A DNA stretch of 60,723 nucleotides, taken from the IMG/VR virus record IMGVR_UViG_3300042868_002569, positions 1-60,723 of that record; one strand, given 5' to 3'. The notes below the pieces were generated by a model, which had not been told where the DNA came from, did not search any database, and was given only the letters and a program-made list of their open reading frames with translations. Positions 3,083 to 50,863 of this stretch are shown piece after piece. The first letter of the stretch is position 1. The number at the start of each line of letters is the position of its first letter. The stretch comes from a virus (taxonomy: Duplodnaviria > Caudoviricetes). The translations under genes and the position numbers were made by a program.

Positions 3083-5544
3083 TCACCTTTTTTGTTAGGT
3101 TTTTCCATCTGTGCTTGGTTTTTTGCTATTTCAGAACCAATCCGTAGACCTTCAAGCTGTCCTTTAGATGCAAGTTCTGCTTTATCTTTGGCAACTTTGG
3201 CGCCAACTTGCATTCCAGCAATTTCTTTCTGGGCTGCAATTCTTTCTCTCTCAATGTCTTGCTGGTCGACTTTGGCGGCAGCGTCAATTTGAAGTTTCTT
3301 CTCTTTAATCTCAACTTCCTTAGCTTTAAGCTGCAATTCTTGTTGTTGCAACTGAATAAGTGGGTCTTGCTGCTGTTGTTGAGCCTGTTGTTGCTGTACT
3401 TCAGCTTGATTCTTCTGTAATAGCTGCTGACCTGCTTGGGCAGCCCTTTGAGAAATCTGCATCTCTAGCTCACGTGGGATATCTTCCTCATCACCATCTT
3501 CACTACGAGGAATCTCAATACCCATCATTTGTTCCATCTGTTTCTTATACTCAAAGCCTAAGTGCTCGGCAATGTGCGCCTGCATAGCAGCACCAATCTG
3601 TTGCGCCATTGGTGATTGACCAACTATTTGCATAATCTTAGGGTCTTGCATAGCAGCCATGTGAACGGTGATATGCGCTTGGTGGTCTTGATAGTAGAAA
3701 GCCTTGATTGGTTTCATACTTAAAGCATTTTGGTTCTCAGTAACTGGGTCTTCAGGCTTCTTGTCGCCTTCAAGCTTAATTAGTTTCTGAGCATTCTTAA
3801 TTCCCAACACATCTAGCATCTGACGATGTAGCTGTGCCAAATCATATAGTTGCGGCGCTGACTGGGCTAACTGTAGGGCTGCTTGATACTGAACAACTTT
3901 CTGTGACATTGTTGCAGCATTAGGGTCGCTAACAGGGATGACGTCCACCATGTCGTAATCAGACTGCTTGGCACGGCGAGAGCCAATCTCTGGCTCGTAT
4001 GGGTAGTCGGCTGGTGTGTAATCACGAATGATTTCCTTAAGTAGCTTAAGCTCTTGCTTCATTGAATAGTGCACGCGAGCCTGAACAGCTGACATCACCT
4101 TCAATGTTCTTTCCAAGATAGCAAGCGTAGTACCAACTGGTGAGTTGGCTGACATGTCGCTAATCTTCATATCAGCAGCAGATGCGAAGCGACGACCTTC
4201 TTCTACGATAGTGCCTAAGAGAGAATAGAGGACTTGCGACGGCTCTTTATAAGGAAGAGGTAATACGTTGTCTCGCATCGTTCCGCTTGGGACGTCGACG
4301 TCACGCCATTCTCCTGGGCTAATTGGCGTGTCATCGCCCTTAATTCTAAGTCCACGAGTTTTGAATCCACCAGGTAGATTAGATAAAGTACCAGCATCAA
4401 CAAGCTGACGTATGATAGAAGTGCCAGACTTAGCGAAGGCGCCAACGAGGTGAATAAGACCAAAGCAATAGAAGCCAAAGCCAGGTACATAGCCATAGTG
4501 AACAAAGTGGTTACGCTTTTGCTTCGTCTCGTCCTCAGGGCGCCAATTGCGTCGGATTGATAAGATTGTGCTCGAGCCTTTTTCGATTGTGACGATGTAG
4601 GGGAGCGCGATACCTGTCGGGTTTCCTTCGTCATCTTTGTCCTCATATCCTGGCAAGTCCAAATTAACTTGCATCTCAAGAAGTTTATATCTGTTGTCAG
4701 TAGTAGCCCGGAAGCCTAGCTTCTCAGCAATCTTCTTCTCTACTTCATCTAGTGTGTTGTCTGGCGCGCCTAGGTCAACGTCACGATAGAAGCCAGCGTA
4801 CTGCAAGCGCTTTAGCTCATTCTCAGTCTTGCGCATGACGTGTGTCACGCGGTCAGCTGTTTCTAAGTTAGATGCGCCATACGGCACAACTACGTCTTCG
4901 GCCGGTACAAAAATGGAAGTCTCTCGGTTTAAACCTGGGTCAAAGTAGACCTTCTTAAACGCGTTACCTGATAGACCAAGTCCCCAACACATGCGCTCAT
5001 GCTCGTTGCGATACTCAACCATCACATCTGTAATTCTGTAGTTCATGTCATCCTGAACACGCTCAGCAGCGTCTTTCTTCTCAGGAGTCTCACGTCCAAC
5101 GATTTGTGTCTTAACTGGGCCGGCTGCTGGCAATGTACTCATCACAGTCTCAGCTTGGAACTTAACCAACGCTTCACTTAATAGCGGGTGGTACACGCCA
5201 CAAGCACCTTCCCAAGGCTCAGAACGCTCTTCAATCTGCATACCCAATAGCTCTAAGCCATCAACGTATGTCTGCATCCAATCTTTGCGTGAACCTACGT
5301 CATCGTCGTAGTCACCAATTAAATCACCGGCTAGCTCAGCTAACGCGCCGTCGTCTAGAACATCCGCAATGTTCTCATCAAAGTCATCTTCTTCGTCGTC
5401 TTTCTCGATACGCAAAATGGGCATGCCATCGACGCCAATCTCTACAGACTCTGGGTCTTCAATAGTTATTTCTAAGTCTGGCTCGTCATTTAGAGCTTCT
5501 TCAATTCCTACAGGAGCTGCGTATAAACTTTTTTCAATCGACAT
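3079..5544 (-). CDS. Portal protein (large, P22-like, with Gln-rich C-terminal coiled coil)
   Basis: ~820 aa directly downstream of terL; start set at MSIEKSLY (ATG 5544, RBS AAGGA upstream). Confidence 0.85.
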   Translation of the reverse strand: MSIEKSLYAAPVGIEEALNDEPDLEITIEDPESVEIGVDGMPILRIEKDDEEDDFDENIADVLDDGALAELAGDLIGDYDDDVGSRKDWMQTYVDGLELLGMQIEERSEPWEGACGVYHPLLSEALVKFQAETVMSTLPAAGPVKTQIVGRETPEKKDAAERVQDDMNYRITDVMVEYRNEHERMCWGLGLSGNAFKKVYFDPGLNRETSIFVPAEDVVVPYGASNLETADRVTHVMRKTENELKRLQYAGFYRDVDLGAPDNTLDEVEKKIAEKLGFRATTDNRYKLLEMQVNLDLPGYEDKDDEGNPTGIALPYIVTIEKGSSTILSIRRNWRPEDETKQKRNHFVHYGYVPGFGFYCFGLIHLVGAFAKSGTSIIRQLVDAGTLSNLPGGFKTRGLRIKGDDTPISPGEWRDVDVPSGTMRDNVLPLPYKEPSQVLYSLLGTIVEEGRRFASAADMKISDMSANSPVGTTLAILERTLKVMSAVQARVHYSMKQELKLLKEIIRDYTPADYPYEPEIGSRRAKQSDYDMVDVIPVSDPNAATMSQKVVQYQAALQLAQSAPQLYDLAQLHRQMLDVLGIKNAQKLIKLEGDKKPEDPVTENQNALSMKPIKAFYYQDHQAHITVHMAAMQDPKIMQIVGQSPMAQQIGAAMQAHIAEHLGFEYKKQMEQMMGIEIPRSEDGDEEDIPRELEMQISQRAAQAGQQLLQKNQAEVQQQQAQQQQQDPLIQLQQQELQLKAKEVEIKEKKLQIDAAAKVDQQDIERERIAAQKEIAGMQVGAKVAKDKAELASKGQLEGLRIGSEIAKNQAQMEKPNKKGE

Positions 5545-5552
5545 GATGGTCC

Positions 5553-7091
5553 TTAATAGTATGCTTTCTTGCGTCGCTTCCAATCCGGAGCTTCGTCTTG
5601 CTCATCGGAGTCTAATGTGATAAAACCGCCTCTACGGAATCTTAACAGGGCCTGGGTCATACTGTCTACTAAGTCGTCGTGTTCTCCAGACGGAAAACTT
5701 GCTACTTCCTCAACAAGTTCTTCAGCCCAATTAGTCGCCGGCACCCAAACCCGTCCAGAAGCAAACATATCTGCCACTGAGTTTAGACGCGCAATCTTGT
5801 CACTTCCTTTAGAGGGTACGTACTCCTGTACCGGTATTCCTCTTGCCCTGAGCTCGAACACCAACGGCGCTCCAGACGCTTTCGCCTCGACAATGAGCGC
5901 ATCAGGCTCCCACTCCTTATAGTGCTCAAAGGCGGACTGCTTGAGCTCCGGGAACTCCATCCGTTCTTTGAAACTATTAAGAAGTATGATGTGCGGGACC
6001 ATGACCCCGACGTTGTTCTCCTGATAAAACACACCCCATGTCGTGCACGCACAGTAGTCGCTCCGTTCTGTCTTTAAAAACGCCGTATCCCAGCTCTGAA
6101 TAGTGAACTCACACATCGGTGGGTCGTCGTGCTCCCATATTCTCCACCACTCACGCTTCACAATAGCTGAAACTTCCGAGGTGGGGTTCTGCATGTACTG
6201 CGCCATCCACTTGGAGTTAGGCAACTCATTGCGTAGGGCTACAAGCTCTTCCCGCTTCCAAAACTCAGGCCATAGAGGCACGTCATCGTCAAATAATGCT
6301 GGAAATTCAATGACTTCCCAACCTTCTCCGCTACGTTGTGCATCAGCTTTAATCACTTTACCTGTCAGGTCTTTCTTCGACCAACGGGTCATAACTATAA
6401 TAATAGAGCCACCAGGCTGTAAACGCTGACGCGGGCCTGACGTATACCATTCGTAGGTCTTATCGTACACATCACTATTAGTCTCAGCTAGCGCTGCTTC
6501 CTGTTCCGAGTGAGGGTCGTCAATAATAAGTATGTCCGCACCTTTACCAGTAACTGCGCCGCCAATACCAATCGCAAAATAGTCTCCGCCTTTGTTAGTG
6601 GCCCATCGCCCAGCTGCTTTTGAGTCTGCTTGAAGACCAAGGCTGGGAAATATGCTCTTGTAGATATCAGAGTCCACCAAGTTACGTACTTTCCTACCAA
6701 ATCCCACGGCCAATTCAGCAGTATGTGAGGTTTGGATAACTTTTTTCTCTGGGTATTTACCCAAAAACCAAGCGGGTAACAGATAAGAGGCAAACTCAGA
6801 CTTAGTATGACGAGGAGGCATATTAATAATAAGCCGTTTACACTCTCCACGAGCCACTTTTTCAAATGCTGCAGCCATTTTTTCATGATGTTTTCCATGT
6901 ATGAAGTTAGGCCATACTTTTCTCACAAAGGCCATAAAATCGTCTTGTGCGGTTTCTTTTTCTTTAGCAACCACGGTTGTATCCGTGATTTTTAAGTAGG
7001 AACGGAGCTCCGCCTCGCTTAATTTGTCGAGGTTGTTGTAAAGAAAGACTAAATCTTCCTTAGTTAGCTCTTTATTCGGTGCTATCTGCAT
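5553..7091 (-). CDS. terL: Terminase large subunit
   Basis: Walker A-like INMPPRHTKS, Walker B LIIDDPH, VMTRW coupling motif, C-terminal nuclease SWDTA...HDDLVDS. Confidence 0.95.
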   Translation of the reverse strand: MQIAPNKELTKEDLVFLYNNLDKLSEAELRSYLKITDTTVVAKEKETAQDDFMAFVRKVWPNFIHGKHHEKMAAAFEKVARGECKRLIINMPPRHTKSEFASYLLPAWFLGKYPEKKVIQTSHTAELAVGFGRKVRNLVDSDIYKSIFPSLGLQADSKAAGRWATNKGGDYFAIGIGGAVTGKGADILIIDDPHSEQEAALAETNSDVYDKTYEWYTSGPRQRLQPGGSIIIVMTRWSKKDLTGKVIKADAQRSGEGWEVIEFPALFDDDVPLWPEFWKREELVALRNELPNSKWMAQYMQNPTSEVSAIVKREWWRIWEHDDPPMCEFTIQSWDTAFLKTERSDYCACTTWGVFYQENNVGVMVPHIILLNSFKERMEFPELKQSAFEHYKEWEPDALIVEAKASGAPLVFELRARGIPVQEYVPSKGSDKIARLNSVADMFASGRVWVPATNWAEELVEEVASFPSGEHDDLVDSMTQALLRFRRGGFITLDSDEQDEAPDWKRRKKAYY

Positions 7092-9220: not shown

Positions 9221-9240
9221 CCCAGCAGCAAAATGTCTAA

Positions 9241-9264
9241 GCCGCCCTTCGGGGCGGTTTTTTT
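9241..9264 (+). terminator. Rho-independent terminator
   Basis: CCGCCC-TTCG-GGGCGG followed by T7. Confidence 0.9.
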
Positions 9265-9281
9265 GTCAGCAGAAAAAATGA

Positions 9282-9310
9282 GGGAACTGGTTGTAAGCGA
9301 CGCAATAGCC
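9282..9310 (+). repeat. 29 bp direct repeat, copy 1
   Basis: GGGAACTGGTTGTAAGCGACGCAATAGCC; 28/29 identical to 10199-10227. Confidence 0.9.
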
Positions 9311-9314
9311 TCGG

Positions 9315-9341
9315 GACAAAGTGGCGTGGTGACACTATGTC
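9315..9341. promoter_or_regulatory. Early-region palindrome (PAL) copy 1
   Basis: GACAAAGTGGCG-TGG-TGACACTATGTC, just upstream of the -35 at 9354. Confidence 0.85.
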
Positions 9342-9353
9342 TGGAACTTATCC

Positions 9354-9382
9354 TTGACTTTTCCCACTTTATAGACTATAAT
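9354..9382 (+). promoter_or_regulatory. Sigma70-type promoter
   Basis: TTGACT-17 bp-TATAAT. Confidence 0.85.
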
Positions 9383-9420
9383 GTATGTATGAGATTGAGA
9401 ATGGTTTGCCCAATTTCACG

Positions 9421-9447
9421 GACAGAGTGTCATGTTGACAAAATGTC
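9421..9447. promoter_or_regulatory. PAL copy 2
   Basis: GACAGAGTGTCA-TGT-TGACAAAATGTC in the leader of the 9473 gene. Confidence 0.85.
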
Positions 9448-9472
9448 CAACTTAGCAAACTTCGGAGATTGT

Positions 9473-10066
9473 ATGAAAAATTCTAAACCCGTAGTACAAA
9501 CAGGCGAAATGGTTGAGATGTTTAACGACCAAGAAATCGCTACCCTTAACGCATCTGCTACTGCATACGCAGACGCAGACGACGACCAAAACGAAGCGGT
9601 CAAAGAAATCGCCAAGGTACTTGGTGCAAAGCCAACTTGGTCACGTTACGAAGCTGGTCGTATCCGCATCTTCGCAGTACTCAAAGAAATCGGCAAAGGT
9701 GACGAGGCTATCAAATCGGTTTGGCGTCGTATGCGTGCCAACTTGGGTATCACGATACCAAGCTCGGACAATCCTGAATCGCAGAAAAAAGCGGAACAGC
9801 GTGCCAAGGCGAAAGTTGAAGCTCGTAAGGTGTACGACGGAAAGTCAGATTCGGTTTTGCAAACTGAAATCAAAACTTTGCTTGCGAACCCAACTTTGGC
9901 GAACATTGCCAACGCAGGGAAAATCACGAAAGAGCTTGAGGTTCGCTTTGACGATGCGAACAAAGCTCACGAAGATGATATGAAGCAGTTGCGTGATAAC
10001 TTGCGTGATTGGATTAAGACTGCGACCTATAAGCAGTTGCAAGATGCTTGGCATCATGTTGCGTAA
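9473..10066 (+). CDS. Early hypothetical protein, paralogue B
   Basis: Start set at MKNSKPV (RBS GGAG); the longer track ORF (9233) runs through a terminator and a promoter; similar to 8084-8737. Confidence 0.75.
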   Translation: MKNSKPVVQTGEMVEMFNDQEIATLNASATAYADADDDQNEAVKEIAKVLGAKPTWSRYEAGRIRIFAVLKEIGKGDEAIKSVWRRMRANLGITIPSSDNPESQKKAEQRAKAKVEARKVYDGKSDSVLQTEIKTLLANPTLANIANAGKITKELEVRFDDANKAHEDDMKQLRDNLRDWIKTATYKQLQDAWHHVA

Positions 10067-10084
10067 GCATTGCTTGCGTAGGGA

Positions 10085-10108
10085 AAGCCCACTTCGGTGG
10101 GCTTTTTT
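10085..10108 (+). terminator. Rho-independent terminator
   Basis: AAGCCCAC-TTCG-GTGGGCTT followed by further Ts. Confidence 0.9.
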
Positions 10109-10117
10109 ATTACATTG

Positions 10118-10144
10118 GACAAAGTGTCACGATGACACTCTGTC
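10118..10144. promoter_or_regulatory. PAL copy 3
   Basis: GACAAAGTGTCA-CGA-TGACACTCTGTC just after the terminator. Confidence 0.9.
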
Positions 10145-10151
10145 CTTTTTG

Positions 10152-10196
10152 TTATGCTCTGGTACAGAGCATAATCTAGTTTGTTTTATTTGTCAA
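10152..10196 (-). promoter_or_regulatory. Leftward sigma70-type promoter overlapped by a perfect 10-3-10 palindrome
   Basis: Minus strand TTGACA (10196-91)-17 bp-TATGCT (10173-68); TTATGCTCTG-GTA-CAGAGCATAA at 10152-10174. Confidence 0.7.
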
Positions 10197-10198
10197 GG

Positions 10199-10227
10199 GG
10201 GAACTGGTGGTAAGCGACGCAATAGCC
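10199..10227 (+). repeat. 29 bp direct repeat, copy 2
   Basis: GGGAACTGGTGGTAAGCGACGCAATAGCC. Confidence 0.9.
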
Positions 10228-10232
10228 CATGC

Positions 10233-10561
10233 AATGTTCCGTAAGTTCCGTGTAATGTTCCAGCTAAGTCGTTGATTATTAAGTAATGTTCTAATGTTCC
10301 TAATGTTCCGAGCTTTTTAGTAACTTTGGAAACGGAGAAAGCAAGACCCCCTTCAGATAGTGCAAGTCCTACGCAACAACTAATTTTAGTAATGGAGCCC
10401 GTCTACTATACTTATTAGAACATTAGAACATTATATATATATAGCTATAAATCTATTTTGTTCCGCTTATAAATCAACAACTTAGCAATGTTCCGCACTC
10501 TCAGAACATTCTAGAACATTACGGAACATTCGGAACAGTCCTTATAAATCAACAACTTAGC
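10233..10561. repeat. Putative replication origin: iteron arrays, AT-rich core and IHF-consensus sites
   Basis: About 14 full or partial AATGTTCY/RGAACATT units in both orientations; TA run at 10432-10443; WATCAANNNNTTR matches at 10265-77 (-), 10472-84 and 10547-59; 21 bp direct repeat CTTATAAATCAACAACTTAGC at 10466 and 10541. Confidence 0.7.
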
Positions 10562-10573
10562 CTAGACAAGCAC

Positions 10574-10602
10574 TTGACATTGTAAGCTATCTGTGGTAAA
10601 CT
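10574..10602 (+). promoter_or_regulatory. Strong sigma70-type early promoter
   Basis: TTGACA-17 bp-TAAACT with extended -10 TG. Confidence 0.85.
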
Positions 10603-10638
10603 AGAGGGGTGAGTGGGAAATTTTTTTTATTAACTTAC

Positions 10639-10666
10639 GACAGAGTGTCACCTTTGACACTTTGTC
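10639..10666. promoter_or_regulatory. PAL copy 4
   Basis: GACAGAGTGTCA-CCTT-TGACACTTTGTC followed by ACCAAGGAG RBS. Confidence 0.9.
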
Positions 10667-10683
10667 CTACCAAGGAGATTGTG

Positions 10684-10878
10684 ATGGCTATGTGTTGGTG
10701 TTGCGGTGAAAGCTTCCCCGATGAACGCAAGGTGCTAGGTTACAGCGTGTGCTTAGTGTGTGGCGATGAATTTGCCCATGCTCGCAAGTTCACAGTAGCA
10801 TGCAGTAACAAACAAGGGTATGAGCTAATCACAGACATATCCTTCCTTAAACAACTTAACCCAAAGAGGACAACATGA
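10684..10878 (+). CDS. C4 zinc-finger protein (DksA/TraR-like finger pattern)
   Basis: CWCCGESFPDERKVLGYSVCLVC; start set at MAMCW after the RBS. Confidence 0.65.
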   Translation: MAMCWCCGESFPDERKVLGYSVCLVCGDEFAHARKFTVACSNKQGYELITDISFLKQLNPKRTT

Positions 10879-11102
10879 CAACAATCAGGCAAATCATTAA
10901 CGAGATGGATACGACATGGTCAATCCACGATGAAGCATCGCACCGAGGCTTTAATTACGCAGAACATTGGATAGAAGAAACAAAGACCTTATTGCGTGAC
11001 GAGGGCATGACCTTGCACTCTGTAATGAAAACTGCATATATAGAAGGCTTTTTGCATGGCTTTGAGCACAAGTTTGATAGCACTAACTACGAGGAGAAAT
11101 GA
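10875..11102 (+). CDS. Hypothetical protein
   Basis: 75 aa, RBS GAGGA, ATGA overlap. Confidence 0.65.
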   Translation: MTTIRQIINEMDTTWSIHDEASHRGFNYAEHWIEETKTLLRDEGMTLHSVMKTAYIEGFLHGFEHKFDSTNYEEK

Positions 11103-11293
11103 TGGCAACACACTATAAGGGCGAACGGATTGATGAACTGTTGGGAGAAATCTCAACCTTGCAAGAAGTCCTAGACCAAAACCGAGAGGCAGGTAACATT
11201 CTGCCTTTCACGGAAATTCATGTGGCACAAGCCTACGCTACGCTTGCGTTGCGGAAAGCACAACTAACTTCGCTAAGGGGTGGTGATGCCTAA
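11099..11293 (+). CDS. Hypothetical protein
   Basis: 64 aa, RBS GAGGAG, ATGA overlap. Confidence 0.65.
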   Translation: MMATHYKGERIDELLGEISTLQEVLDQNREAGNILPFTEIHVAQAYATLALRKAQLTSLRGGDA

Positions 11294-11567
11294 AGCTATA
11301 CCTAAACCTATTATTAACCCAAACAACTTAGGTCAAGAGAGGTCAATAAATGAGCTACTAGGTCAACCTATTCTCAAGGATAGTTTGGACAGTAGCGTTC
11401 TGGCATTGACCGCAGTAATTAACGACCTTGATATGGCAACCAAAAAGGGTGTGACTGCTGACCATCGCAGACTACTTATTTGGAAGGCAAGAAACCAAAC
11501 CGAAGTGATTATCAAACTATTGGACATAGTGTCAAAATGCCACTCTGTCTCACAGGAGAAACCATGA
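11286..11567 (+). CDS. Hypothetical protein
   Basis: ~93 aa; its 3' end reads through PAL copy 5. Confidence 0.55.
   Translation: MPKAIPKPIINPNNLGQERSINELLGQPILKDSLDSSVLALTAVINDLDMATKKGVTADHRRLLIWKARNQTEVIIKLLDIVSKCHSVSQEKP
11523..11549. promoter_or_regulatory. PAL copy 5
   Basis: GACATAGTGTCA-AAA-TGCCACTCTGTC followed by CAGGAG RBS. Confidence 0.85.
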
Positions 11568-11740
11568 GAACCATAGTTAAAGAACGACACCGCAAGAAAG
11601 AACCAAGACCGCAAGACCGTATGCTTGCAGACTTTTTGCGTGCACCAACGGCTGAACAGAAACGCAAAGTCATTGAGCAGTTTGCACCGTTTTACTTTGC
11701 ACTAACCCCACGACAGGAGGAACAAAATGAAACTGTTTGA
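11564..11740 (+). CDS. Small basic hypothetical protein
   Basis: Start MRTIVKERHRKK after RBS AGGAG. Confidence 0.6.
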   Translation: MRTIVKERHRKKEPRPQDRMLADFLRAPTAEQKRKVIEQFAPFYFALTPRQEEQNETV

Positions 11741-11864
11741 AGATAAAGCGGACTACGAGGACTTCGTAGATTTCGCAGTAGGAACAGCTTGGGTATTACT
11801 ACTCACACTCATAGCATCAGGTATTGCTTTGATGGTGATGGTAGCACTAGGTTGGGTATTATAA
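11727..11864 (+). CDS. Small single-pass membrane protein (45 aa, not in ORF track)
   Basis: RBS AGGAGG; MKLFEDKADYEDFVDFAVGTAWVLLLTLIASGIALMVMVALGWVL. Confidence 0.65.
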   Translation: MKLFEDKADYEDFVDFAVGTAWVLLLTLIASGIALMVMVALGWVL

Positions 11865-11880
11865 GTTGTTGTTTAACATA

Positions 11881-11908
11881 GACAAAGTGTCAATGGTGAC
11901 ACTAAGTC
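11881..11908. promoter_or_regulatory. PAL copy 6
   Basis: GACAAAGTGTCA-ATGG-TGACACTAAGTC followed by TTAACCAAGGAGAAGTAAATG. Confidence 0.9.
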
Positions 11909-11926
11909 TTAACCAAGGAGAAGTAA

Positions 11927-12466
11927 ATGGACTTACCAATTGAAGTAATCAACGCAGTAAAACCAAAACCAAAGGCACGCAAGCCGTATGCACGTAAGCT
12001 AACTAAGCGTATCTTGCAAGCTATCGGTAGTGGGCTACGCACTTCAGCATCTATTGCTAAGGCATTGGATGTTGATAAAGCTAGGATTCAGTCTAACTTG
12101 CATCACATCAAGAACCGTGGGCTTGTCCATGCAACCAAGCAAGAAGGCAAGGTCGAGCTCAAGTATCACTTGGCAACGGAGACGGCAAAGCCGAAGGCAC
12201 GCAAGCCATATGCCAAGCGTGTGGCAAAAGTGGCAAAAGTGGCAAAAGTGGCAACGGTGGAAGTAAAACCAACTCTAATGCTAGGCAATTACGCCCGAGA
12301 ACTAGAAGTTAAGGTAGACCACATCACGAGCAAGCTCGTTTACTTGGAACAATCCTTGATAGATAAGGAGAAGGAAGTGTGGACTCTTGAGTGCGAAGTC
12401 TTTGATAAGAAAGCAATTATTAAATACTTGGAAGAGAAACTCTTTGCCCTTGGGGTGCGTGTATGA
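11927..12466 (+). CDS. Winged-helix DNA-binding protein with basic repeats and C-terminal coiled coil
   Basis: ILQAI..GLRTSASIAKALDVDKARIQSNLHHIKNRGLV is a wHTH pattern; KPKARKPYA occurs twice. Confidence 0.7.
   Translation: MDLPIEVINAVKPKPKARKPYARKLTKRILQAIGSGLRTSASIAKALDVDKARIQSNLHHIKNRGLVHATKQEGKVELKYHLATETAKPKARKPYAKRVAKVAKVAKVATVEVKPTLMLGNYARELEVKVDHITSKLVYLEQSLIDKEKEVWTLECEVFDKKAIIKYLEEKLFALGVRV
12221..12254 (+). repeat. 9 bp in-frame tandem repeat (GTGGCAAAA) x3 plus partial
   Basis: Encodes VAKVAKVAKVA. Confidence 0.9.
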
Positions 12467-13407
12467 GCCTAACCTCAATGCCTAACCACGCAGGCTTGCC
12501 TGTGTTGAAGGACTACTACCAAGCCAAGCAACACTTTGAAAATGTGAAGTCTATTCGTGGTAGGAAAGAAGACATCAAGCCACTTGGTCGTGAACGCAGG
12601 TATGACCAATACCTCATTCAGCAAACCATGCGAGCCGACCAATCGCAGGGTGTCACGCATATAGATTATGTGTGTGCCTTGTATAACTCGCCTGTCGTGA
12701 CCTTCATGCAAGATGGGCGAGTCACGCTAAATAGTAGTTGGAATAGTGTGCCTACTCGCTGCGTTATGCAGTATGTATTACGTGAGCATGGTGTGGTGGA
12801 TAGCCAAAGCGGTAAGTGGTACTTCATCAACAAGCGGAAAGAGGCTTTCTTAATTGGCAAAGAGATAACTCTGAAGTTTGATGCCGAGGGTATCTTGACA
12901 GGCGATATGCAACAGGAACATAAGCACTTGCTTAAACGCAAAGTGATGAACGACCTGCGGAATAAGTACAAGTTCTTTACGGACTATGCCTATACCATGC
13001 TATCGCTTGACCCAAGCACGCTACGCTTGGAAGTTGCCGAGGCTAGTCATGGACTAAACTTTAAAACACAACCAACATTTATCGGGCATAGACAGGGGTA
13101 TTGGGTGCAACAAATGAAAGACCACACCCCACCCAATAACAGGGCAAAGCTTTTCCAAGCATTGGATAGACCTAACGCTTCGGCCGATGCGTTGTTGCTT
13201 TACGAGCTTGCAACTTGTATTGCGTATGTCGTGGGTAGGTATGACTACACAATATGTAAGTCTGTGTGTGAGCCTAAGGCTTTCATTGAATCATTTAATG
13301 AGATTCTTAAGTATCACTTTGCAGATGCAGTATTTGAGAAGGTAGAGCAACCGCTTGGCTCATTGTTTATTGACAAGAACGCTAAGTACATTCCATACAA
13401 GAAGTAA
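12463..13407 (+). CDS. Hypothetical protein
   Basis: 314 aa ORF; stop codon abuts PAL copy 7. Confidence 0.75.
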   Translation: MSLTSMPNHAGLPVLKDYYQAKQHFENVKSIRGRKEDIKPLGRERRYDQYLIQQTMRADQSQGVTHIDYVCALYNSPVVTFMQDGRVTLNSSWNSVPTRCVMQYVLREHGVVDSQSGKWYFINKRKEAFLIGKEITLKFDAEGILTGDMQQEHKHLLKRKVMNDLRNKYKFFTDYAYTMLSLDPSTLRLEVAEASHGLNFKTQPTFIGHRQGYWVQQMKDHTPPNNRAKLFQALDRPNASADALLLYELATCIAYVVGRYDYTICKSVCEPKAFIESFNEILKYHFADAVFEKVEQPLGSLFIDKNAKYIPYKK

Positions 13408-13434
13408 GACAGAGTGTCATGGTGACACTATGTC
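13408..13434. promoter_or_regulatory. PAL copy 7
   Basis: GACAGAGTGTCA-TGG-TGACACTATGTC starting right after the TAA. Confidence 0.9.
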
Positions 13435-13462
13435 CATTTAACCAAACCGAAAGGAACTAAAA

Positions 13463-14557
13463 ATGTCAGAAGTATTTATGCACCGCACCGTAACCCTCAA
13501 AGAAGCAGAGGACTTAATCGTATCAATGGGTTCTGATGCAACGGCTCACCTTGTAGGAGAACCGGGGGTTGGTAAGACCTCTATGTTCAACAATATTGTT
13601 AAGAGAACTGGCTATAAAGGGATTTACATTGACGCACCGAACATCGAGTTGGGCGAGTTGGGTGTTCCGATTCCCAATCACGAAACCAAAACGACACGCA
13701 TCTATCCAAACGAGCAATGGGGTTTTCATCTTGACGAGCCATTGGTTATCTTTGTTGACGAGTTCACCAAGGCACACCAAGCAGTTAAGAATATGTTGCA
13801 TCCGATGCTCAATGAACCAAGGCAAATCATGGGTATCCCATTGCACAAGGATACGATAGTCGTAACGGCAGGCAATTACTCAGGCGATGGTGTTGGCGAC
13901 CACATGATGAGTCACTCTCGCAATCGTATTACTGTGCTGACAGTCAAGAAACCACACGCAGGCTTTAACATTGATGGTTCTATTGACGATGATTCATGGG
14001 GTAAGTGGGCTATCTCAAGTGACATTGCACCTGAGATTCTTGCGTGGGTGAAGGAGAATCCGCACACTCTCGCATCCTATACTGACGCATCACAGGCAGG
14101 CAACAAGTATATCTTCAACCCAAAGGAATCGCAGAAGTCTTTTGTCAGTCCTCGTTCCCTTGCTAGAGCAAGTAATATTCTTAAGAAACGCCATATGGTC
14201 ACAGTCAACGCAACGATTACCGCACTACAGGGTACGATTGGAGCACCTGCTGCGAATGACTTGATGTCATATGTGGAAGTAGCCGATTCACTACCAACAT
14301 GGGAAAGTATTATCAAAGACCCGAAAACTGCACAAGTGCCAACATCACCTGCCGCTTTATGTCTATTGGCTTTCTCAGCAGTTCAGCGTGTGGACAGAGA
14401 AACTATTAGTAAGTTCTTTGAGTACCTACAACGCACACCGAAAGAGTTGCAGTCTGTGTTCTGTATTACAGGTATGAAGAACGACGATAAGAAGAAGCTA
14501 TTCCTTACTAGCCAATCATTCGTTGAGTGGATGCGTACCAATCAGTATTTATTCTAA
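13463..14557 (+). CDS. MoxR-type (dynein-related) AAA+ ATPase
   Basis: Walker A GEPGVGKT, Walker B IFVDE, sensor TAGN, R-finger region RNR, sensor-2 SPRS. Confidence 0.85.
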   Translation: MSEVFMHRTVTLKEAEDLIVSMGSDATAHLVGEPGVGKTSMFNNIVKRTGYKGIYIDAPNIELGELGVPIPNHETKTTRIYPNEQWGFHLDEPLVIFVDEFTKAHQAVKNMLHPMLNEPRQIMGIPLHKDTIVVTAGNYSGDGVGDHMMSHSRNRITVLTVKKPHAGFNIDGSIDDDSWGKWAISSDIAPEILAWVKENPHTLASYTDASQAGNKYIFNPKESQKSFVSPRSLARASNILKKRHMVTVNATITALQGTIGAPAANDLMSYVEVADSLPTWESIIKDPKTAQVPTSPAALCLLAFSAVQRVDRETISKFFEYLQRTPKELQSVFCITGMKNDDKKKLFLTSQSFVEWMRTNQYLF

Positions 14558-14584
14558 GACGGGGTGTCATGTTGACACTTTGTC
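14558..14584. promoter_or_regulatory. PAL copy 8
   Basis: GACGGGGTGTCA-TGT-TGACACTTTGTC right after the TAA, then AACCAAGGAGAAGTAAATG. Confidence 0.9.
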
Positions 14585-14601
14585 CAACCAAGGAGAAGTA
14601 A

Positions 14602-14877
14602 ATGGAAGAAAAAGAAATGAAAGCTAGGAAGGAACAGTTAATCCAAATGCGAGATGCATTGGGTTCTTACTTCGAGAAGGAAGATATGGAAGTGGGCATG
14701 GTAATGTCCGTGCTACTTACCATGCTAGTTGAAACAATGATAGAGCACGCAAAAATGGAACCTCATACTGCCATGCTTGTTATGACTAAGGCTGTTGCTC
14801 ATGCATACGAGGGACTTAACGATGATGAAGAAGATGATAACGATGACACTAAAGGAGAAACACAATGGCTAAACTAA
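14602..14877 (+). CDS. Hypothetical protein
   Basis: 91 aa with acidic tail, strong RBS. Confidence 0.65.
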   Translation: MEEKEMKARKEQLIQMRDALGSYFEKEDMEVGMVMSVLLTMLVETMIEHAKMEPHTAMLVMTKAVAHAYEGLNDDEEDDNDDTKGETQWLN

Positions 14878-16094
14878 CTGCCGAGCAACGCATCGAGAAG
14901 GCTCATGTCCGCTTGATGCGACACCCAAACTATTGCTTGTTCTCAGGCTTATTCATGGTGGGTAAAGTAACAGTCGATGATGCAGTCGAGACTGCTAAGA
15001 CCAACGGTGTAGATGTAATCTATGGTAGAGAATTCGTTGACCGACTTAACGACAAGGAACTTGCTTTCCTTATCTTGCATGAGAATATGCACAAGGCTTA
15101 TCGCCACTTGATTGTGTGGGAATCTCTGTATCGCAAGAATCCACAGCTTGCTAACATGGCGTGTGACTATGTAATCAATCTGCAAATCCGTGATTACGAC
15201 CCACAATGCAATGAAACCGAGATGCCCAAAGATGCAGATGGTGAAGTCATGGGCTTGATTGACGAACAGTATCGTGGCATGGATGCATACCAAGTCTATA
15301 TATTGCTAGAGAAGGAGGAAAAGCAAGGCGGTAGCGGTGGTAGCGGTGATGGTAGCGGTCAGCCACAAGGCAATGGGAATGGTAAGCCACAACTTGACGA
15401 CCACGATTGGGAAGGTGCAAAGCAACAGACCGCCCAAGAGAAGGAACAAACAACTCGTGAAATTGAAGGTGCGTTGCGACAAGGTGCGTTACTTGCAGGC
15501 AAGATGAAAGGTAATCTCAGCCGAGAGATGCAAGACTTACTCACACCCAAGGTGAATTGGCGAGATGCATTGCGTGACTTCGTCAAGTCCTCAACTCAAG
15601 GCAAAGACCAAACCACATGGCGAAGATTGCATAAGCGTTACATTGGTATGGATATTATTATGCCGAGCACCTATGACGAGAAGGTGGGTAGCATCATGGT
15701 AGCCGTAGACACATCAGGTTCTATCGGTGGTGCAGAGCTTGCTCAGTTCTTGAGTGAGGTCAAGTCTATCTGTGAAGAAGTAAGTCCTGAGAAGATTGAC
15801 TTAATCTATTGGGATACTGAAGTTGCAGGTCATGAAACCTATCAAAGCAACGAGCTATCAAACATTACGCAAGTAACAGAAGCTAAGGGTGGTGGCGGTA
15901 CAGACCCATCATGCGTGCCTAAGTATGTAACTAAAAACAGACTTGAGCCTGAGTGCGTAATCATGCTAACCGACGGCTACATTGGGAGACAGAATGAAAA
16001 CGATTATCAGATTGGTAAGCCGTTTATGTGGTGCATCAAAGGTAATCCAAACTTCAACGAAGATGTCGTTGGAAAGGTTGTCCATGTCGAATGA
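14865..16094 (+). CDS. Metallopeptidase-like + VWA domain protein (DUF2201-type), partner of the AAA ATPase
   Basis: HENMH (HExxH), NMACDYVIN, MIDAS DTSGS, GGGGT, LTDGY. Confidence 0.85.
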   Translation: MAKLTAEQRIEKAHVRLMRHPNYCLFSGLFMVGKVTVDDAVETAKTNGVDVIYGREFVDRLNDKELAFLILHENMHKAYRHLIVWESLYRKNPQLANMACDYVINLQIRDYDPQCNETEMPKDADGEVMGLIDEQYRGMDAYQVYILLEKEEKQGGSGGSGDGSGQPQGNGNGKPQLDDHDWEGAKQQTAQEKEQTTREIEGALRQGALLAGKMKGNLSREMQDLLTPKVNWRDALRDFVKSSTQGKDQTTWRRLHKRYIGMDIIMPSTYDEKVGSIMVAVDTSGSIGGAELAQFLSEVKSICEEVSPEKIDLIYWDTEVAGHETYQSNELSNITQVTEAKGGGGTDPSCVPKYVTKNRLEPECVIMLTDGYIGRQNENDYQIGKPFMWCIKGNPNFNEDVVGKVVHVE

Positions 16095-16341
16095 CGATAC
16101 CCCATTTATTATTAGCGTAGCTAATGTCGTGCTAGACAAAGACGAACTAGCCGAGCTCATGTCTTTCTTGCGTAGTAAGAAGTTCTTGTATCGTGAATAC
16201 AAAGGCGCAAACAAGGGCTTTGATGGTGGCGAGTATGACTTCTCGTTTGTCAGATGTGATGAGAAATCAAGGGTAGAGATTTCGCCTGTCAATGAAGCAT
16301 TGTGGTTGTACTTAAATACTTTTGGAAAGGAAACTAAATGA
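16084..16341 (+). CDS. Hypothetical protein
   Basis: Start set at MSNDDTPF. Confidence 0.55.
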   Translation: MSNDDTPFIISVANVVLDKDELAELMSFLRSKKFLYREYKGANKGFDGGEYDFSFVRCDEKSRVEISPVNEALWLYLNTFGKETK

Positions 16342-16523
16342 CTACCGTACCTAAAGGTCGTGCTAAAGATGGCAAGGTCAATGTCAGTCTTAATCCTGAG
16401 ACTGTGGAGATGCTTGCCGTTATCAAAGATAAGATGGCTGAGGATATGGGGTTCAAGCTAACCTATTCTCAAGCAATCCAACATTTAATTAAGTATTACG
16501 AAAACGACAGAGTGTCAAACTGA
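16338..16523 (+). CDS. Possible ribbon-helix-helix DNA-binding protein
   Basis: KVNVSL beta-strand then two helices (ETVEMLAVIKDKM / TYSQAIQHLIKY); 3' end overlaps PAL copy 9. Confidence 0.5.
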   Translation: MTTVPKGRAKDGKVNVSLNPETVEMLAVIKDKMAEDMGFKLTYSQAIQHLIKYYENDRVSN

Positions 16524-16532
16524 CACTCTGTC
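16506..16532. promoter_or_regulatory. PAL copy 9 (perfect 12-3-12)
   Basis: GACAGAGTGTCA-AAC-TGACACTCTGTC then TTAACCAAGGAGAAGTAAATG. Confidence 0.95.
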
Positions 16533-16550
16533 TTAACCAAGGAGAAGTAA

Positions 16551-17420
16551 ATGAACACGAATAACAGTATAAGTATTGCATCATCAGCGATGCTAGTTGA
16601 ACTAAGCATCAGCGGTTGGACTGCACGCAAGTTGGATAAGAAAGTATCTGCCGAGATTGATGTGGCTAAAGGCACGCAGACTCAAGCAGGTAATTACAAC
16701 AAGAACCTACTAGCAGGCACAGGGTTCTTGGATACTATCACTAAGTATGCCTCTAGTTCTAGAGCATGGCATATTTCTCAGACCTTACCTTGGTCAGATA
16801 GTGGTGTGCGTTTGTTACCTGTGTCTAACTTCATCGCTTACAAGGAACAACTAAATAAGCTAGAAGAAAACTACACCGCCCTAGTCCACAAGTTTGTAGA
16901 TGCGTACCCTAACTTAGTGACAGCGGCTGCGTTTCAATTGGGCAATCTATTCGACAGAACAGAATACCCCGATGCGGATAAGATATTCCACAAGTTCAAG
17001 TTCAGTTGTAACTTCTTTCCTGTCCCGCAGGCAGGTGACTTCCGAGTAGACATAGGCGAGGAAGCCAAGCAAGAACTAGCTAACTCATGCCAACACGCAT
17101 ACGAGGAAAGACTTAACAACGCTATGGGTGAGGTATGGCAACGATTGCATAAGTGTCTATCCAATGTTAGCGAAAGGCTTACGCTCAATAGTGACGGGGA
17201 AGAAAAGTTATTCCGAGATAGCTTGGTTGGTAATGCTCACGAACTAATCGAACTGCTGACACACCTTAACATCACGAAAGACCCCAAGCTTGAGCAAGCT
17301 CGCATAGAGTTGAACGAGGCTATCGGGCATCATGATGCCGATTCCCTACGCAGAAGTGTGGTTGCCAAAGAAGCAGTCAAGAGCAAAGTTGATTCAATCT
17401 TATCTAAATTTGAATTTTGA
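16551..17420 (+). CDS. Phage protein of a type found beside AAA/VWA pairs (possibly DUF3150-like)
   Basis: 289 aa; LVELSISGWTARKLD...TLPWSDSGVRLLP motifs; family assignment from memory. Confidence 0.6.
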   Translation: MNTNNSISIASSAMLVELSISGWTARKLDKKVSAEIDVAKGTQTQAGNYNKNLLAGTGFLDTITKYASSSRAWHISQTLPWSDSGVRLLPVSNFIAYKEQLNKLEENYTALVHKFVDAYPNLVTAAAFQLGNLFDRTEYPDADKIFHKFKFSCNFFPVPQAGDFRVDIGEEAKQELANSCQHAYEERLNNAMGEVWQRLHKCLSNVSERLTLNSDGEEKLFRDSLVGNAHELIELLTHLNITKDPKLEQARIELNEAIGHHDADSLRRSVVAKEAVKSKVDSILSKFEF

Positions 17421-17431
17421 AAGAAACAAAC

Positions 17432-18295
17432 ATGGTCAATGTAAATAAACTAGAACTATCCGACAACAAGCGACACTTACCCTACGGTGATAACCTAGAA
17501 GAGTTTCTTAACCTTGTCGCCCTAGCCAAACCATTATGCACATTTGCGGTTGATAACCAATGCGTGCGTAGTGAGTGGGTTCGCAACACCGATAACGGCT
17601 CTGAGTATATGGAAGTCCTTAACACTATCAAGGTATACGAAGATGGTGAAGCCATCGGTTCTATCTCAGTAGGTAGGCGATACCGAAGTGGTGGGCGAGA
17701 AGGTGTGTATGGTGTTGAGTCTTTCCGTATCCACAGGGAACGAGGTGATAGGAACACGACCTATGTCAAGGACATCAAGGTTGCCATGCGTAATGTCAAG
17801 AAGTTCTTTACAGGTAGGCAGGATAACGAAGTTAAAGAATTGATTACGCACAATGTAAAAAAAGGCATGGAAGCAGTAACTCATAGTGCAATTCAAAGTA
17901 TTAGTTGGTCAATAGATTCAAGAGAGATTGCATTTAACTATGTCATGCAAGCCTATCACGCACACAAACGAGATGATACCGCTGTGGCTATGCCTGTCAG
18001 AATACCTACAGTCGTAGACCAAGAAAAACTGTTTAGTAAATGCGAGGAAGTGATACAAGCCACGACGCTTGACGACCACTACAAAGGTAACAACGGATAT
18101 GGTGTTCAAATGCGGGTAGACAACAGTGTCGTAACCTATTCTTACGCATCAGATAAGATTACAAAGTACCGTAGCTTTGATGATGTACCGACCAACATTC
18201 AAGAAAAACTTGCCATGTTCAAAGTCTTGGAGAAAGGCGAAGCTTATGCCGACTTTGGTGTTAAGTTTGATGATGGGTTCTTCTACATACCGTAA
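17432..18295 (+). CDS. Hypothetical protein
   Basis: ~287 aa, last gene of the early block; start may be TTG at 17417 instead. Confidence 0.7.
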   Translation: MVNVNKLELSDNKRHLPYGDNLEEFLNLVALAKPLCTFAVDNQCVRSEWVRNTDNGSEYMEVLNTIKVYEDGEAIGSISVGRRYRSGGREGVYGVESFRIHRERGDRNTTYVKDIKVAMRNVKKFFTGRQDNEVKELITHNVKKGMEAVTHSAIQSISWSIDSREIAFNYVMQAYHAHKRDDTAVAMPVRIPTVVDQEKLFSKCEEVIQATTLDDHYKGNNGYGVQMRVDNSVVTYSYASDKITKYRSFDDVPTNIQEKLAMFKVLEKGEAYADFGVKFDDGFFYIP

Positions 18296-18301
18296 ATAAA
18301 C

Positions 18302-18330
18302 TTGAATAAAAATAGCAGTAGCACTATACT
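18302..18330 (+). promoter_or_regulatory. Sigma70-type promoter of putative sRNA1
   Basis: TTGAAT-17 bp-TATACT; no convincing ORF before the downstream terminator. Confidence 0.75.
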
Positions 18331-18336
18331 GATAGT

Positions 18337-18534
18337 GAACTCTACCTCCTTGGTTAAGTTCCTTTCAAGGTTGCTCTTGGTTTTGCCTAGTAGATGTATT
18401 ACCAAGAGATGGCTAACGCCAGCAATCTCCCTTACCGTAAGTAGGATGCGGAATCTACTTTTGCCTACATAGCTTTAGCTAACATTGCATTACCTCCGAC
18501 CCCCTAGTCCTGCAAGATTAGGGGGTTTTCTTTT
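18337..18534 (+). ncRNA. Putative structured antisense sRNA (sRNA1) against early-gene ribosome-binding leaders
   Basis: Bounded by promoter and terminator; 18346-58 is the exact reverse complement of 11908-20 and 16532-44; 18357-66 is the reverse complement of 13449-58; internal stems present. Confidence 0.7.
18500..18534 (+). terminator. Rho-independent terminator
   Basis: CCCCCTAGTC-CTGCAA-GATTAGGGGG followed by TTTTCTTTT. Confidence 0.85.
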
Positions 18535-18535
18535 G

Positions 18536-18562
18536 GACAAAGTGTCAAGTTGACACTGTGTC
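18536..18562. promoter_or_regulatory. PAL copy 10
   Basis: GACAAAGTGTCA-AGT-TGACACTGTGTC between the terminator and the next promoter. Confidence 0.9.
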
Positions 18563-18602
18563 CTATTAGGGTATGCACCTATAAAATAATTTAAAGTTTC
18601 GC

Positions 18603-18631
18603 TTGATTTCCTAAAACATGGGAACTATACT
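18603..18631 (+). promoter_or_regulatory. Sigma70-type promoter, replication operon 1
   Basis: TTGATT-17 bp-TATACT. Confidence 0.75.
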
Positions 18632-18663
18632 GTGTATAGAATCACTACACAAAAGCCGAAACC

Positions 18664-18978
18664 ATGACAACTCCTGAGACAAAGGTTAAACAAGCCGTCG
18701 TCAAAATACTTGACAAGCACGGTGCCTACCACTTCTTTCCAGCCACCCACGGCTATGGTCGTAGCGGTGTGCCTGATATTGTAGCGTGCCACAATGGTAG
18801 GTTCATCGGCATCGAATGTAAGGCGGGCAAAGGTGTTCCTACTGCACTACAAGAACGAGAGCTACGCTTAATACAACAAGCTGGCGGTATCTCTATGATT
18901 ATTCGTGAGGATACCACTAACCTACTTGACCACATTTTGTCCACCCCCACCAGTTCCCAAGAAAGGACAAATGTATGA
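18664..18978 (+). CDS. VRR-NUC domain nuclease
   Basis: TPETKVK...GRSGVPDIVAC..GRFIGIECKA...TALQ. Confidence 0.85.
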   Translation: MTTPETKVKQAVVKILDKHGAYHFFPATHGYGRSGVPDIVACHNGRFIGIECKAGKGVPTALQERELRLIQQAGGISMIIREDTTNLLDHILSTPTSSQERTNV

Positions 18979-34002: not shown

Positions 34003-34079
34003 GTAGACGATTGGTTTCGGCTACTTTCCTTAGTGAGTGAGTGATTTAAGCCCCGGCGTAAAACCCCGGGGTCTTTTTT
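34003..34079 (+). ncRNA. Putative antisense sRNA (sRNA2) against replication-operon leaders
   Basis: Possible promoter TTGCGT (33967-72)-18 bp-TATCAT (33991-96); 34012-22 is the reverse complement of 18654-64; 34025-33 and 34037-43 are reverse complements of 29385-93 and 29375-81. Confidence 0.6.
34050..34079 (+). terminator. Rho-independent terminator at the replication/virion convergence
   Basis: CCCCGG-9 nt-CCGGGG followed by TCTTTTTT. Confidence 0.8.
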
Positions 34080-49890: not shown

Positions 49891-50108
49891 TATTGCCCCC
49901 AGATTTTAGTGCCAATCGGTTTAGACGTTACATTAATAGCCACATGTTGTTTAGGCGTAGATAAGTCAGCACCACAATCGTTGCACTTTTGAGCAGCTAA
50001 TTCAGCTTCATCTACATCGCGACTGCAGCTTGGGCATAGGATTTCTACCTTGTGCTTAGCTACTAAGGTACCGTCTTCTAGTTTTACCGCAGCGTTGTCT
50101 TGAATCAT
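49890..50108 (-). CDS. Small zinc-ribbon protein
   Basis: CPSC...CNDC. Confidence 0.65.
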   Translation of the reverse strand: MIQDNAAVKLEDGTLVAKHKVEILCPSCSRDVDEAELAAQKCNDCGADLSTPKQHVAINVTSKPIGTKIWGQ

Positions 50109-50647: not shown

Positions 50648-50655
50648 TTTTTAAA

Positions 50656-50856: not shown

Positions 50857-50863
50857 AATAATC

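Follow-up and report, generated by a model that had tools for sequence, protein, structure and literature searches.

What product is made from a 368-nucleotide (nt) gap that lies between the early and the replication genes of a lake phage, and what does that product do? The gap belongs to the 60,723-nt stretch analysed here (IMG/VR record IMGVR_UViG_3300042868_002569, hereafter the window; a 60.7-kb virus record from lake water, nearly complete at 96%), where it separates the open reading frame (ORF) 17417-18295 from the resolvase gene 18664-18978. It is occupied by a unit that runs from a promoter-like site to a terminator (18302-18537, + strand). An earlier note on this DNA had read the unit as a small RNA (sRNA) with several seeds that represses the translation of early genes. 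Comparison with relatives indicates that the unit is a real, conserved non-coding RNA gene. The 5' region of the RNA is complementary to early ribosome-binding sites beyond chance and changes together with them from clade to clade, and we favour, at a probability of roughly 0.6, the reading that the RNA acts in trans as an anti-Shine-Dalgarno repressor of the phage's own early genes.

A conserved non-coding promoter-to-terminator unit

Related loci were collected with the DNA polymerase (PolA) as query, and 80 of 388 viral stretches were kept; the upstream protein 17417-18295, used as a query, returned none. Homologues of the gap were found by blastn in 10 of the 80 PolA-linked loci. A degenerate pattern of 18-22 nt, taken from the most conserved stretch, was also run on viral and metagenome loci, where 19 of the 25 viral matches proved to be genuine homologues (the remaining six being unrelated by context), as did 37 of the 40 matches from lake metagenomes. 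These searches yielded 42 distinct core sequences, 38 of them usable after the removal of two unrelated and two truncated ones. We aligned 32 of the 38, omitting six identical or nearly identical rows, and built a covariance model from this alignment. The model matched 16 of the 80 PolA-linked loci, a set in which many members hold too little upstream sequence for a verdict, as well as the window itself, and added more distant homologues in loci L028, L030 and L032, L011 and L047, with L039 marginal.

Searches of characterized phages and RNA families were negative. No GenBank phage gave a blastn match to the gap or to the 8 kb around it, and the covariance model found nothing in the cultured relatives DSL-LC04, 023Pt_psg01 and HTVC027P. 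A 15.5-bit match in HTVC023P lay antisense inside the ferrochelatase gene and was judged spurious. The covariance search against Rfam that the earlier note had proposed was run, and no family matches the RNA: the window had no match in Rfam 15 at gathering score. When E-values up to 10 were admitted, the region 18200-18700 returned SNORD102, SIB, RybB (terminator only) and SNORA12, which is chance level, and eight relatives returned STnc100 below threshold, aligned to the terminator only, which we do not regard as homology. The literature searched, among it the available portions of PMC12197685 and PMC10914365, held no description of the RNA. So far, the family has been found only in uncultured lake phages.

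The promoter-like site was located by a promoter scan at 18302-18330 (+ strand; -35 TTGAAT at 18302-18307, a 17-nt spacer, -10 TATACT at 18325-18330). A -10 hexamer is placed 6-7 nt before the 5' hairpin of the RNA in most clades, with an extended TG upstream in some; among 23 representatives it reads TATACT in 14 and another TAnnnT in 5, the script's choice not being meaningful in 4. At the other end, a scan identified an intrinsic terminator (18498-18537, + strand) with a 12-pair stem at 18498-18527 and the T run UUUUCUUUU, and a GC-rich hairpin with a T run ends every homologue. The gene downstream is preceded by a separate conserved promoter in every clade seen (-35 of the TTGCAA type, -10 TATACT), and the terminator therefore marks a true 3' end. 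For an Hfq-type sRNA, binding to Hfq would be expected in addition to such a 3' hairpin with its U run. Just upstream, folding gives a small hairpin and a single-stranded stretch (18469-18497, + strand) that carries the second of the two ACCTCC sites of the unit (18344 and 18492). This second ACCUCC (18492-18497) is kept in the window clade (L111, L124, L130); elsewhere the stretch reads ACCUUUC, AGUUCCU or is otherwise pyrimidine-rich.

No reading frame is kept in the unit, and an open + frame was present in none of the 32 homologous core sequences. Eight G-U cells in the core alignment, which would be A-C on the opposite strand, the fold z-scores (-3.56 on the + versus -2.13 on the - strand) and a T run that follows the terminator on the + strand only all assign the RNA to the + strand. 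The claim of a non-coding promoter-to-terminator unit on that strand was therefore borne out by the conserved -10 and terminator of the relatives and by the missing frame, and in its sequence features the region fits a discrete non-coding transcription unit. Candidate protein-coding segments at 18302-18472 (56 amino acids, TTG start) and 18335-18472 had been considered separately and were rejected, with stops in all + frames of all 32 homologues and indels whose lengths break the triplet frame. The possibility that the inverted ribosome-binding site serves a gene on the minus strand was likewise rejected, for want of a start codon at a usable distance.

The 5' hairpin and the early leaders

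Folding places a hairpin at the 5' end of the RNA (18337-18361, + strand; stem 18337-18341 with 18357-18361), and its loop carries ACCUCCUUGG, which resembles the anti-Shine-Dalgarno sequence of 16S rRNA. The stem has at least eight different sequences in relatives, and the loop always reads CUCCUU, CCUCCU or CUUCUU. One group, the L043-type clade, has no hairpin; its RNA has the 5' end UUGUAUUUCC and starts beside the upstream gene's stop codon.

Three segments of the RNA are complementary to leaders on the + strand of the window, and a script reproduced exactly all the matches that the earlier note had listed (11908, 16532, 14586, 10669, 13449, 9464, 10674 and the ACCTCC sites). Seed A (18346-18358) is complementary to the ribosome-binding regions of four genes: over 13 nt for gene 16551-17420, which encodes a DUF3150-like protein and is the conserved principal candidate target (16532-16544), over 13 nt for gene 11927-12466, whose protein has weak helix-turn-helix matches (11908-11920), over 10 nt for gene 14602-14877 (14586-14595, AACCAAGGAG) and over 9 nt for gene 10684-10878 (10669-10681, with ACCAAGGAG at 10669). 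The leaders that match seed A are copies of one repeated cassette (four AACCAAGGAG leaders), in which TTAACCAAGGAG comes after a palindrome of 27-29 nt (GACAGAGTGTCA-N4-TGACACTCTGTC) and six bases separate it from the ATG. Because they are repeated copies, these matches are not independent of one another. A further 13-nt match, GGAACTTAACCAA at 5157-5169 (+ strand), is complementary to sRNA positions 18350-18362 and falls inside the minus-strand portal gene; it is probably fortuitous or a stray cassette fragment.

Seed B (18357-18372) pairs over 10 nt with the leader of the AAA ATPase gene 13463-14557 (13449-13458, GAAAGGAACT) and over 4 more base pairs (bp), AACC:GGUU, across a 2-nt bulge; its 8-nt core GAAAGGAA also matches the leaders of genes 9026 and 16338. 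The complementarity to these three leaders thus stood, but seed B is confined to the window clade. Elsewhere it is the loop seed that pairs with the AAA leader, so that the AAA ATPase is a conserved target and the seed segment that pairs with it is not conserved. Seed C (CAATCTCC, 18423-18430) is located further downstream in J2/3 (18422-18434, + strand), a strand defined by the alignments that carries a conserved AUCUC box. Its 8-nt complement GGAGATTG occurs at 9464 and 10674, in the leaders of genes 9473 and 10684. The 8-nt match is exact, but it sits in the conserved core, and the window and L043 clades are the only ones in which the leader of the 9473 orthologue shows it (8-10 nt). Both clades carry the same J2/3 sequence, which leaves seed C no covariation, and many chance 8-mers occur. 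Seed C was rejected as a general seed, being tied to the 9473 orthologue in two clades and to a strand whose invariant part is conserved for other reasons; as a targeting segment it is possible but unproven.

We compared the complementarity of the 36-nt 5' region (18337-18372) to the 85 start regions of the window with that of 5000 shuffles, the shuffling being repeated with CCTCC held fixed. At least 9 contiguous complementary nt were present in 6 of the 85 start regions, and the longest match was 13 nt. A maximum of 13 nt or more had a probability of 0.001 in the shuffles (0.0024 with CCTCC fixed), and for matches of 9 nt or longer in at least five start regions the probability was 0.0006 (0.0044 with CCTCC fixed). 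The start regions were also ranked by cofolding the 5' domain alone with fragments spanning -60 to +20, the cost of opening both structures included. Early leaders (n=19) had a mean of -6.2 kcal/mol, compared with -3.5 kcal/mol for the other 66 (Mann-Whitney P 0.0004), and a difference of this size was reached by none of 150 shuffles with CCTCC fixed. Genes 16551 and 11927 ranked second and third. These results are consistent with an accessible seed in the RNA that is complementary to start regions beyond chance.

The relatives allow seed and leader to be followed together. Orthologues were assigned by blastp against the window proteins, and the 28 nt up to the start codon were compared. The longest complementary matches of each relative's 5' region fell on ribosome-binding sites, repeatedly those of the same orthologous genes. 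For the start region of the 16551 (DUF3150-like) orthologue, the 11 clades gave medians of 9 contiguous complementary nt and -16.5 kcal/mol; for that of the AAA ATPase orthologue, 6 clades gave 9 contiguous nt, compared with 5-6 nt and -10 to -12 kcal/mol for four control genes (orthologues of 14865, 17417, 19190 and 12463). The 16551 orthologue exceeded every control in 9 of the 11 clades and tied in 2. In a permutation test with 11 clade representatives, in which each RNA was paired with its own or with another clade's 16551 leader, own pairs averaged 8.8 nt and cross-clade pairs 6.8 nt (P 0.0011 for length, P 0.0019 for duplex energy).

Compensatory variants of leader and sRNA between clades include AACCAAGGAG with CUCCUUGGUU and AAACAAGGAG with CUCCUUGUUU. 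The window clade combines the leader CTTAACCAAGGAG with the sRNA sequence CUCCUUGGUUAAG; the corresponding pairs are TAAACAAGGAG and CUCCUUGUUUA in the L120 clade, CAAAGGAG and CUCCUUUG in the L125 clade, TAACCAAGAAG and CUUCUUGGUUA in the L086 clade, and CACAGGAG and CUCCUGUG in the L094 clade. In the hairpin-less L043 clade, the leader AGGAAUACAA faces the sRNA 5' end itself, UUGUAUUUCC, with one bulged base. The leader of the downstream resolvase gene (TAAACAAGGA) is complementary over 9-10 nt in several clades, not in the window. Seed and target thus appear to change together in relatives, with exceptions that are given below. The proposal of a 5' seed that acts in trans on early ribosome-binding sites gains from this comparison, as the hairpin, the CUCCUU loop and the complementarity to the DUF3150-like and AAA leaders all recur and covary.

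On this basis, we propose that host RNA polymerase would transcribe an RNA of ~200 nt from its own sigma-70-type promoter, and that the intrinsic terminator would end it. The 5' hairpin would display a pyrimidine-rich loop resembling the 3' end of 16S rRNA, extended by phage-specific flanking bases, and the loop would base-pair, in trans, with Shine-Dalgarno regions on early mRNAs of the same phage. Genes 16551 (DUF3150-like) and 13463 (AAA ATPase) would be its main targets, to which the window phage may have added the 'hairpin + TTAACCAAGGAG' leader cassettes of 11927, 14602 and 10684. With the ribosome-binding site covered, 30S binding would be blocked and the mRNA might be exposed to RNases, and translation of the early genes would be damped or switched off as the RNA accumulates. 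Duplexes over the Shine-Dalgarno sequence block 30S binding in bacterial sRNAs and in the c4 RNA of phages P1 and P7 (PMC12197685), and a translational repressor is therefore the most economical reading.

A number of results weigh against the proposed repressor. Promoter-like matches were as frequent in the window as in shuffles (22 versus 21.4), and the promoter scan alone is therefore not significant. Among the sequencing runs listed for the locus none was of RNA, and two runs with a small share (X23, X24) that were guessed to be RNA yielded contigs of relatives, uninformative on transcripts. The start regions came from a crude home-made gene caller and the clades are related, so that the tests overstate independence. 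The 16551 leader was no better than the controls in clades L013 and L012, the 5'-end match of the L043 type is weaker (7 nt, or 9 bp with the bulge), and the L086 pairing lies just upstream of the Shine-Dalgarno sequence and not on it. Some seeds fit a foreign leader better than their own: the window seed matches 16 nt of the L013 leader and 13 nt of its own; for the L008 seed the numbers are 14 nt (L120 leader) and 9 nt (own leader), and for the L125 seed 13 nt (L108 leader) and 8 nt (own leader). When the full-length RNA was cofolded with the 85 start regions, early leaders were barely ahead (P 0.044), and the top partners were unrelated genes, the cassette leaders not being the best. That cofold was plain and noisy, with the pseudoknots ignored and disrupted, and the test was therefore repeated with the 5' domain as described above. 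The ranking of early leaders above those of middle and late genes, whose absence the earlier note had named as refuting its reading, accordingly holds for the 5' domain (P 0.0004) and among phage genes, but is weak for the whole molecule. The sum of the five best energies was also unexceptional, 130 of 150 shuffles being at least as low, a statistic that is confounded because shuffling destroys the native hairpin. Finally, the most conserved part of the RNA is not the seed but the core, and the primary function may reside there.

The double-pseudoknot core and competing explanations

The earlier note missed that most of the RNA is a conserved core of ~100 nt with five helices, P1, P2, P3 and the pseudoknots PK1 and PK2. 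P1 (18374-18408; 18374-18381 with 18401-18408; this and the following elements on the + strand) encloses the box CCTAGTAGATG (18386-18396), which is almost invariant across homologues as CCTAGYAGATG. A per-sequence duplex search found P1 in every variant, with many helix sequences; the aligners gave no single register for it. PK1 (18390-18458) joins GUAGAU (18390-18395) to AUCUAC (18453-18458) or, in general form, G/A-Y-AGAU in the P1 loop to AUCU-R-Y just after P3. It was 100% paired in 36 sequences, with zero mismatches among the variants GU..AC, GC..GC and AC..GU, and it covaries at two positions (GC 28 / AU 8 and CG 22 / UA 14). P2 (18410-18421) is variable, with changes on both sides in 4 of 5 pairs; it has GNRA-type loops in many relatives and is absent in the L094 clade. 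P3 (18435-18451; 18435-18438 with 18448-18451; loop AAGUAGGAU) was 93% paired, with 2 covarying pairs. PK2 (18441-18468) joins the loop sequence GUAGG (18441-18445) to CCUAC (18464-18468) and was 100% paired in 36 sequences, with both-side changes in 4 of 5 pairs and six helix sequences (GUAGG:CCUAC, GUGGG:CCCAC, AUGGG:CCCAU, GUGAG:CUCAU, CUAGG:CCUAG and a G-run with a C-run). As PK2 was not part of the covariance model, this result is not circular.

Over the 32-sequence alignment, 94.3% of cells were paired, compared with 27-37% when the partners were slid by 1-3 columns. In the 36 model-aligned sequences, 95.2% were paired and both-side, compensatory changes were seen in 12 of 20 pairs. The distant L047 homologue (6415-6560) has a long P2 insertion and the G-run:C-run version of PK2. 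It lies downstream of the polymerase gene instead of upstream, and the RNA gene has therefore moved within the genome in that lineage. The core may be a folding, stability or protein-binding module, or may sense something. We also entertain the more specific idea, speculative and in our view quite unlikely, that it represents a new class of functional RNA fold that gates or empowers the anti-Shine-Dalgarno seed, as a metabolite or protein sensor, a nuclease-resistant knot or a ribosome- or chaperone-docking module.

As the core is the best-conserved part of the RNA, the main alternative is that it carries the main function, as a decoy that binds a protein or the ribosome, a ligand sensor, a fold that cleaves itself or withstands nucleases, or a processing signal, with the 5' anti-Shine-Dalgarno hairpin an accessory or lineage-specific part. 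All homologues have the core, hairpin-less clades included; its invariant loops and junctions (CCTAGYAGATG, AUCUC, AAUCU) and its two pseudoknots have been kept through many compensatory changes, which is typical of RNAs whose three-dimensional shape matters, and it matches no Rfam family. That the 5' region tracks the same orthologous start region in 9 of 11 clades would then be left unexplained, and the neighbouring genes that we scanned include no obvious RNA-binding partner. We consider this alternative unlikely, albeit the one to be taken most seriously; it and the repressor are not mutually exclusive.

The position of a structured RNA directly upstream of a strong terminator, at the border of the early and replication modules, could also suggest an element acting in cis, either an attenuator of the riboswitch kind or an antitermination RNA like put or EAR, with read-through of the terminator into the replication genes under its control. 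In the L043 clade the RNA even begins at the stop codon of the upstream gene, without a clear promoter. However, a conserved -10 box stands just before the RNA in most clades, the downstream gene has a promoter of its own, and the spacer between core and terminator varies from ~5 to ~45 nt. Nor was an alternative pairing with the terminator stem visible, as judged by reading the sequences without a formal test; the fixed sensor-terminator geometry of an attenuator controlling the downstream gene was thus not found, and we regard action in cis as very improbable. A still slimmer chance attaches to the suggestion that the hairpin is what remains of an inverted leader cassette, or a site that works as DNA (an operator or part of an origin), its RNA pairing having no function. 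The reverse complement of the window hairpin is indeed a leader cassette, with a 16-nt match to the L013 phage leader, and repeated cassettes and palindromes abound in the early region. A relic would decay, yet this hairpin is kept with covarying stems, its loop follows the orthologous leader, and it stands at a fixed distance from the -10 box, fused to a covarying structured RNA. All leader copies moreover have one orientation and overlap the Shine-Dalgarno sequence, which points to the RNA level.

Genomic setting and relation to known systems

The + strand genes at ~7.7-34 kb form an early block, with the protein that has weak helix-turn-helix matches, a MoxR-like AAA ATPase, a DUF2201 VWA/metallopeptidase-like protein and the DUF3150-like protein, and a replication block with an Hjc-like resolvase, a family A DNA polymerase, a helicase and a primase-helicase. 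When the target proteins were compared with protein families, AAA and DUF2201 matched, helix-turn-helix matches were weak, and DUF3150 stayed below threshold. The terminase, the portal, the tail proteins and a 2137-amino-acid virion protein are encoded on the minus strand. By terminase, the nearest cultured phages are pelagiphages of the HTVC023P/HTVC027P type, 023Pt_psg01 and the lake phage DSL-LC04, at ~50-57% identity. No phage RNA polymerase was detected among the 30 window proteins scanned, which are part of the genes, and a tRNA/tmRNA scan found none.

The early region is rich in repeats. The palindrome of the leader cassette, perfect or near-perfect, has ten copies, all in the early region at 9315-18562 (9315, 9421, 10118, 10639, 11523, 11881, 13406, 14556, 16506 and 18536). 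Seven stand directly before a ribosome-binding site, the others flank promoters or follow terminators, and relatives have palindromes with phage-specific sequences at the same places. They could be phage-repressor operators, RNase III-type processing hairpins or gene-shuffling cassettes. The order terminator, palindrome, promoter is found three times (9239-9382, 10086-10602 and 18498-18631). The second of these overlaps an ORF-free gap of ~450 nt (10150-10610), preceded by a terminator (~10086-10112) and by one of the palindromes. In this gap, AATGTTCC/GGAACATT occurs at least ten times, counting both orientations, alongside an exact direct repeat of 21 nt (10466, 10541) and a tract of TATATATATATA. 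The gap ends in the promoter-like TTGACA-17-TAAACT (10574-10602) and resembles a replication origin or a dense array of operators. Among the promoter-like sites of the early region, the strongest is TTGACT-17-TATAAT (9354-9382, 11/12 matches). It has palindromes on both sides, and its CCTTGACTTTTCCCAC is also present in relatives; ORF 9233-10066 therefore probably starts at 9473.

Other features of the window were recorded in passing. Gene 11927-12466 has internal repeats, with GTGGCAAAA in tandem ~4 times (12221-12256) and repeats of 27-28 nt at 11956, 12178 and 12262. The 2137-amino-acid protein (34078-40491, - strand) has DarB-like antirestriction and large virion-protein matches and is probably an ejected internal virion protein. 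In the tail-gene region, ACCTCC occurs three times at 9-nt spacing (52131, 52140, 52149), adjoining a stretch of low GC content (0.35 at 50-52 kb, 50001-52000, compared with ~0.43 elsewhere in the window).

The known kind to which the RNA would belong is the phage trans-acting antisense RNA, c4-like. The c4 RNA, which is matured by RNase P, is short and acts on one antirepressor operon in temperate phages. Like the RNA proposed here, c4 of phages P1 and P7 is phage-encoded, structured and trans-acting, and its loops pair around a phage ribosome-binding site and block translation (PMC12197685). The window RNA showed no sequence or structure match to the C4 family in the Rfam scans; unlike c4, it combines a double-pseudoknot core with a terminator of its own and with several putative targets dispersed among the early genes, and no lysogeny genes were noticed in its phage.

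Other systems share single traits with the RNA. Bacterial sRNAs that consist of a seed and a terminator, such as the C-rich anti-Shine-Dalgarno sRNAs RsaE/RoxS, have a 5' or loop seed, pyrimidine-rich stretches, a U-tailed terminator and several targets. The window RNA resembles them in seed position, in its pyrimidine-rich anti-Shine-Dalgarno stretches, in the U-tailed terminator and in the number of targets. There is no homology, however, the weak RybB and STnc100 matches resting on the terminator; these sRNAs are without a conserved pseudoknotted core, whereas the window RNA has one and its targets would be the phage's own genes. The RegB endoribonuclease of T4 inactivates early phage mRNAs at the GGAG of Shine-Dalgarno sequences; the end result would be the same, but RegB is a protein nuclease and not an RNA. 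HK022 put RNA and Bacillus EAR are structured RNAs at module borders that act in cis on the polymerase and on terminator read-through. The window RNA is likewise structured, at a module border and associated with the use of host polymerase, but it seems to stop at its terminator, and a separate promoter serves the next gene.

What is new is the RNA family, its fold and the targeting of several early leaders. Phage sRNAs known to regulate genes of their own phage in trans are few and come mostly from temperate enterobacterial phages, and rarer still is the intermolecular covariation seen here between the seed of a regulator and the ribosome-binding site of a conserved target. The RNA offers a structured molecule for structural study, a candidate Rfam family and a testable model for early-gene shut-off in a phage with no RNA polymerase of its own among the proteins scanned. 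If the core does gate the seed, an abundant lineage of lake phages would time its switch from early to replication genes with a trans-acting RNA, using host polymerase only, instead of with a protein.

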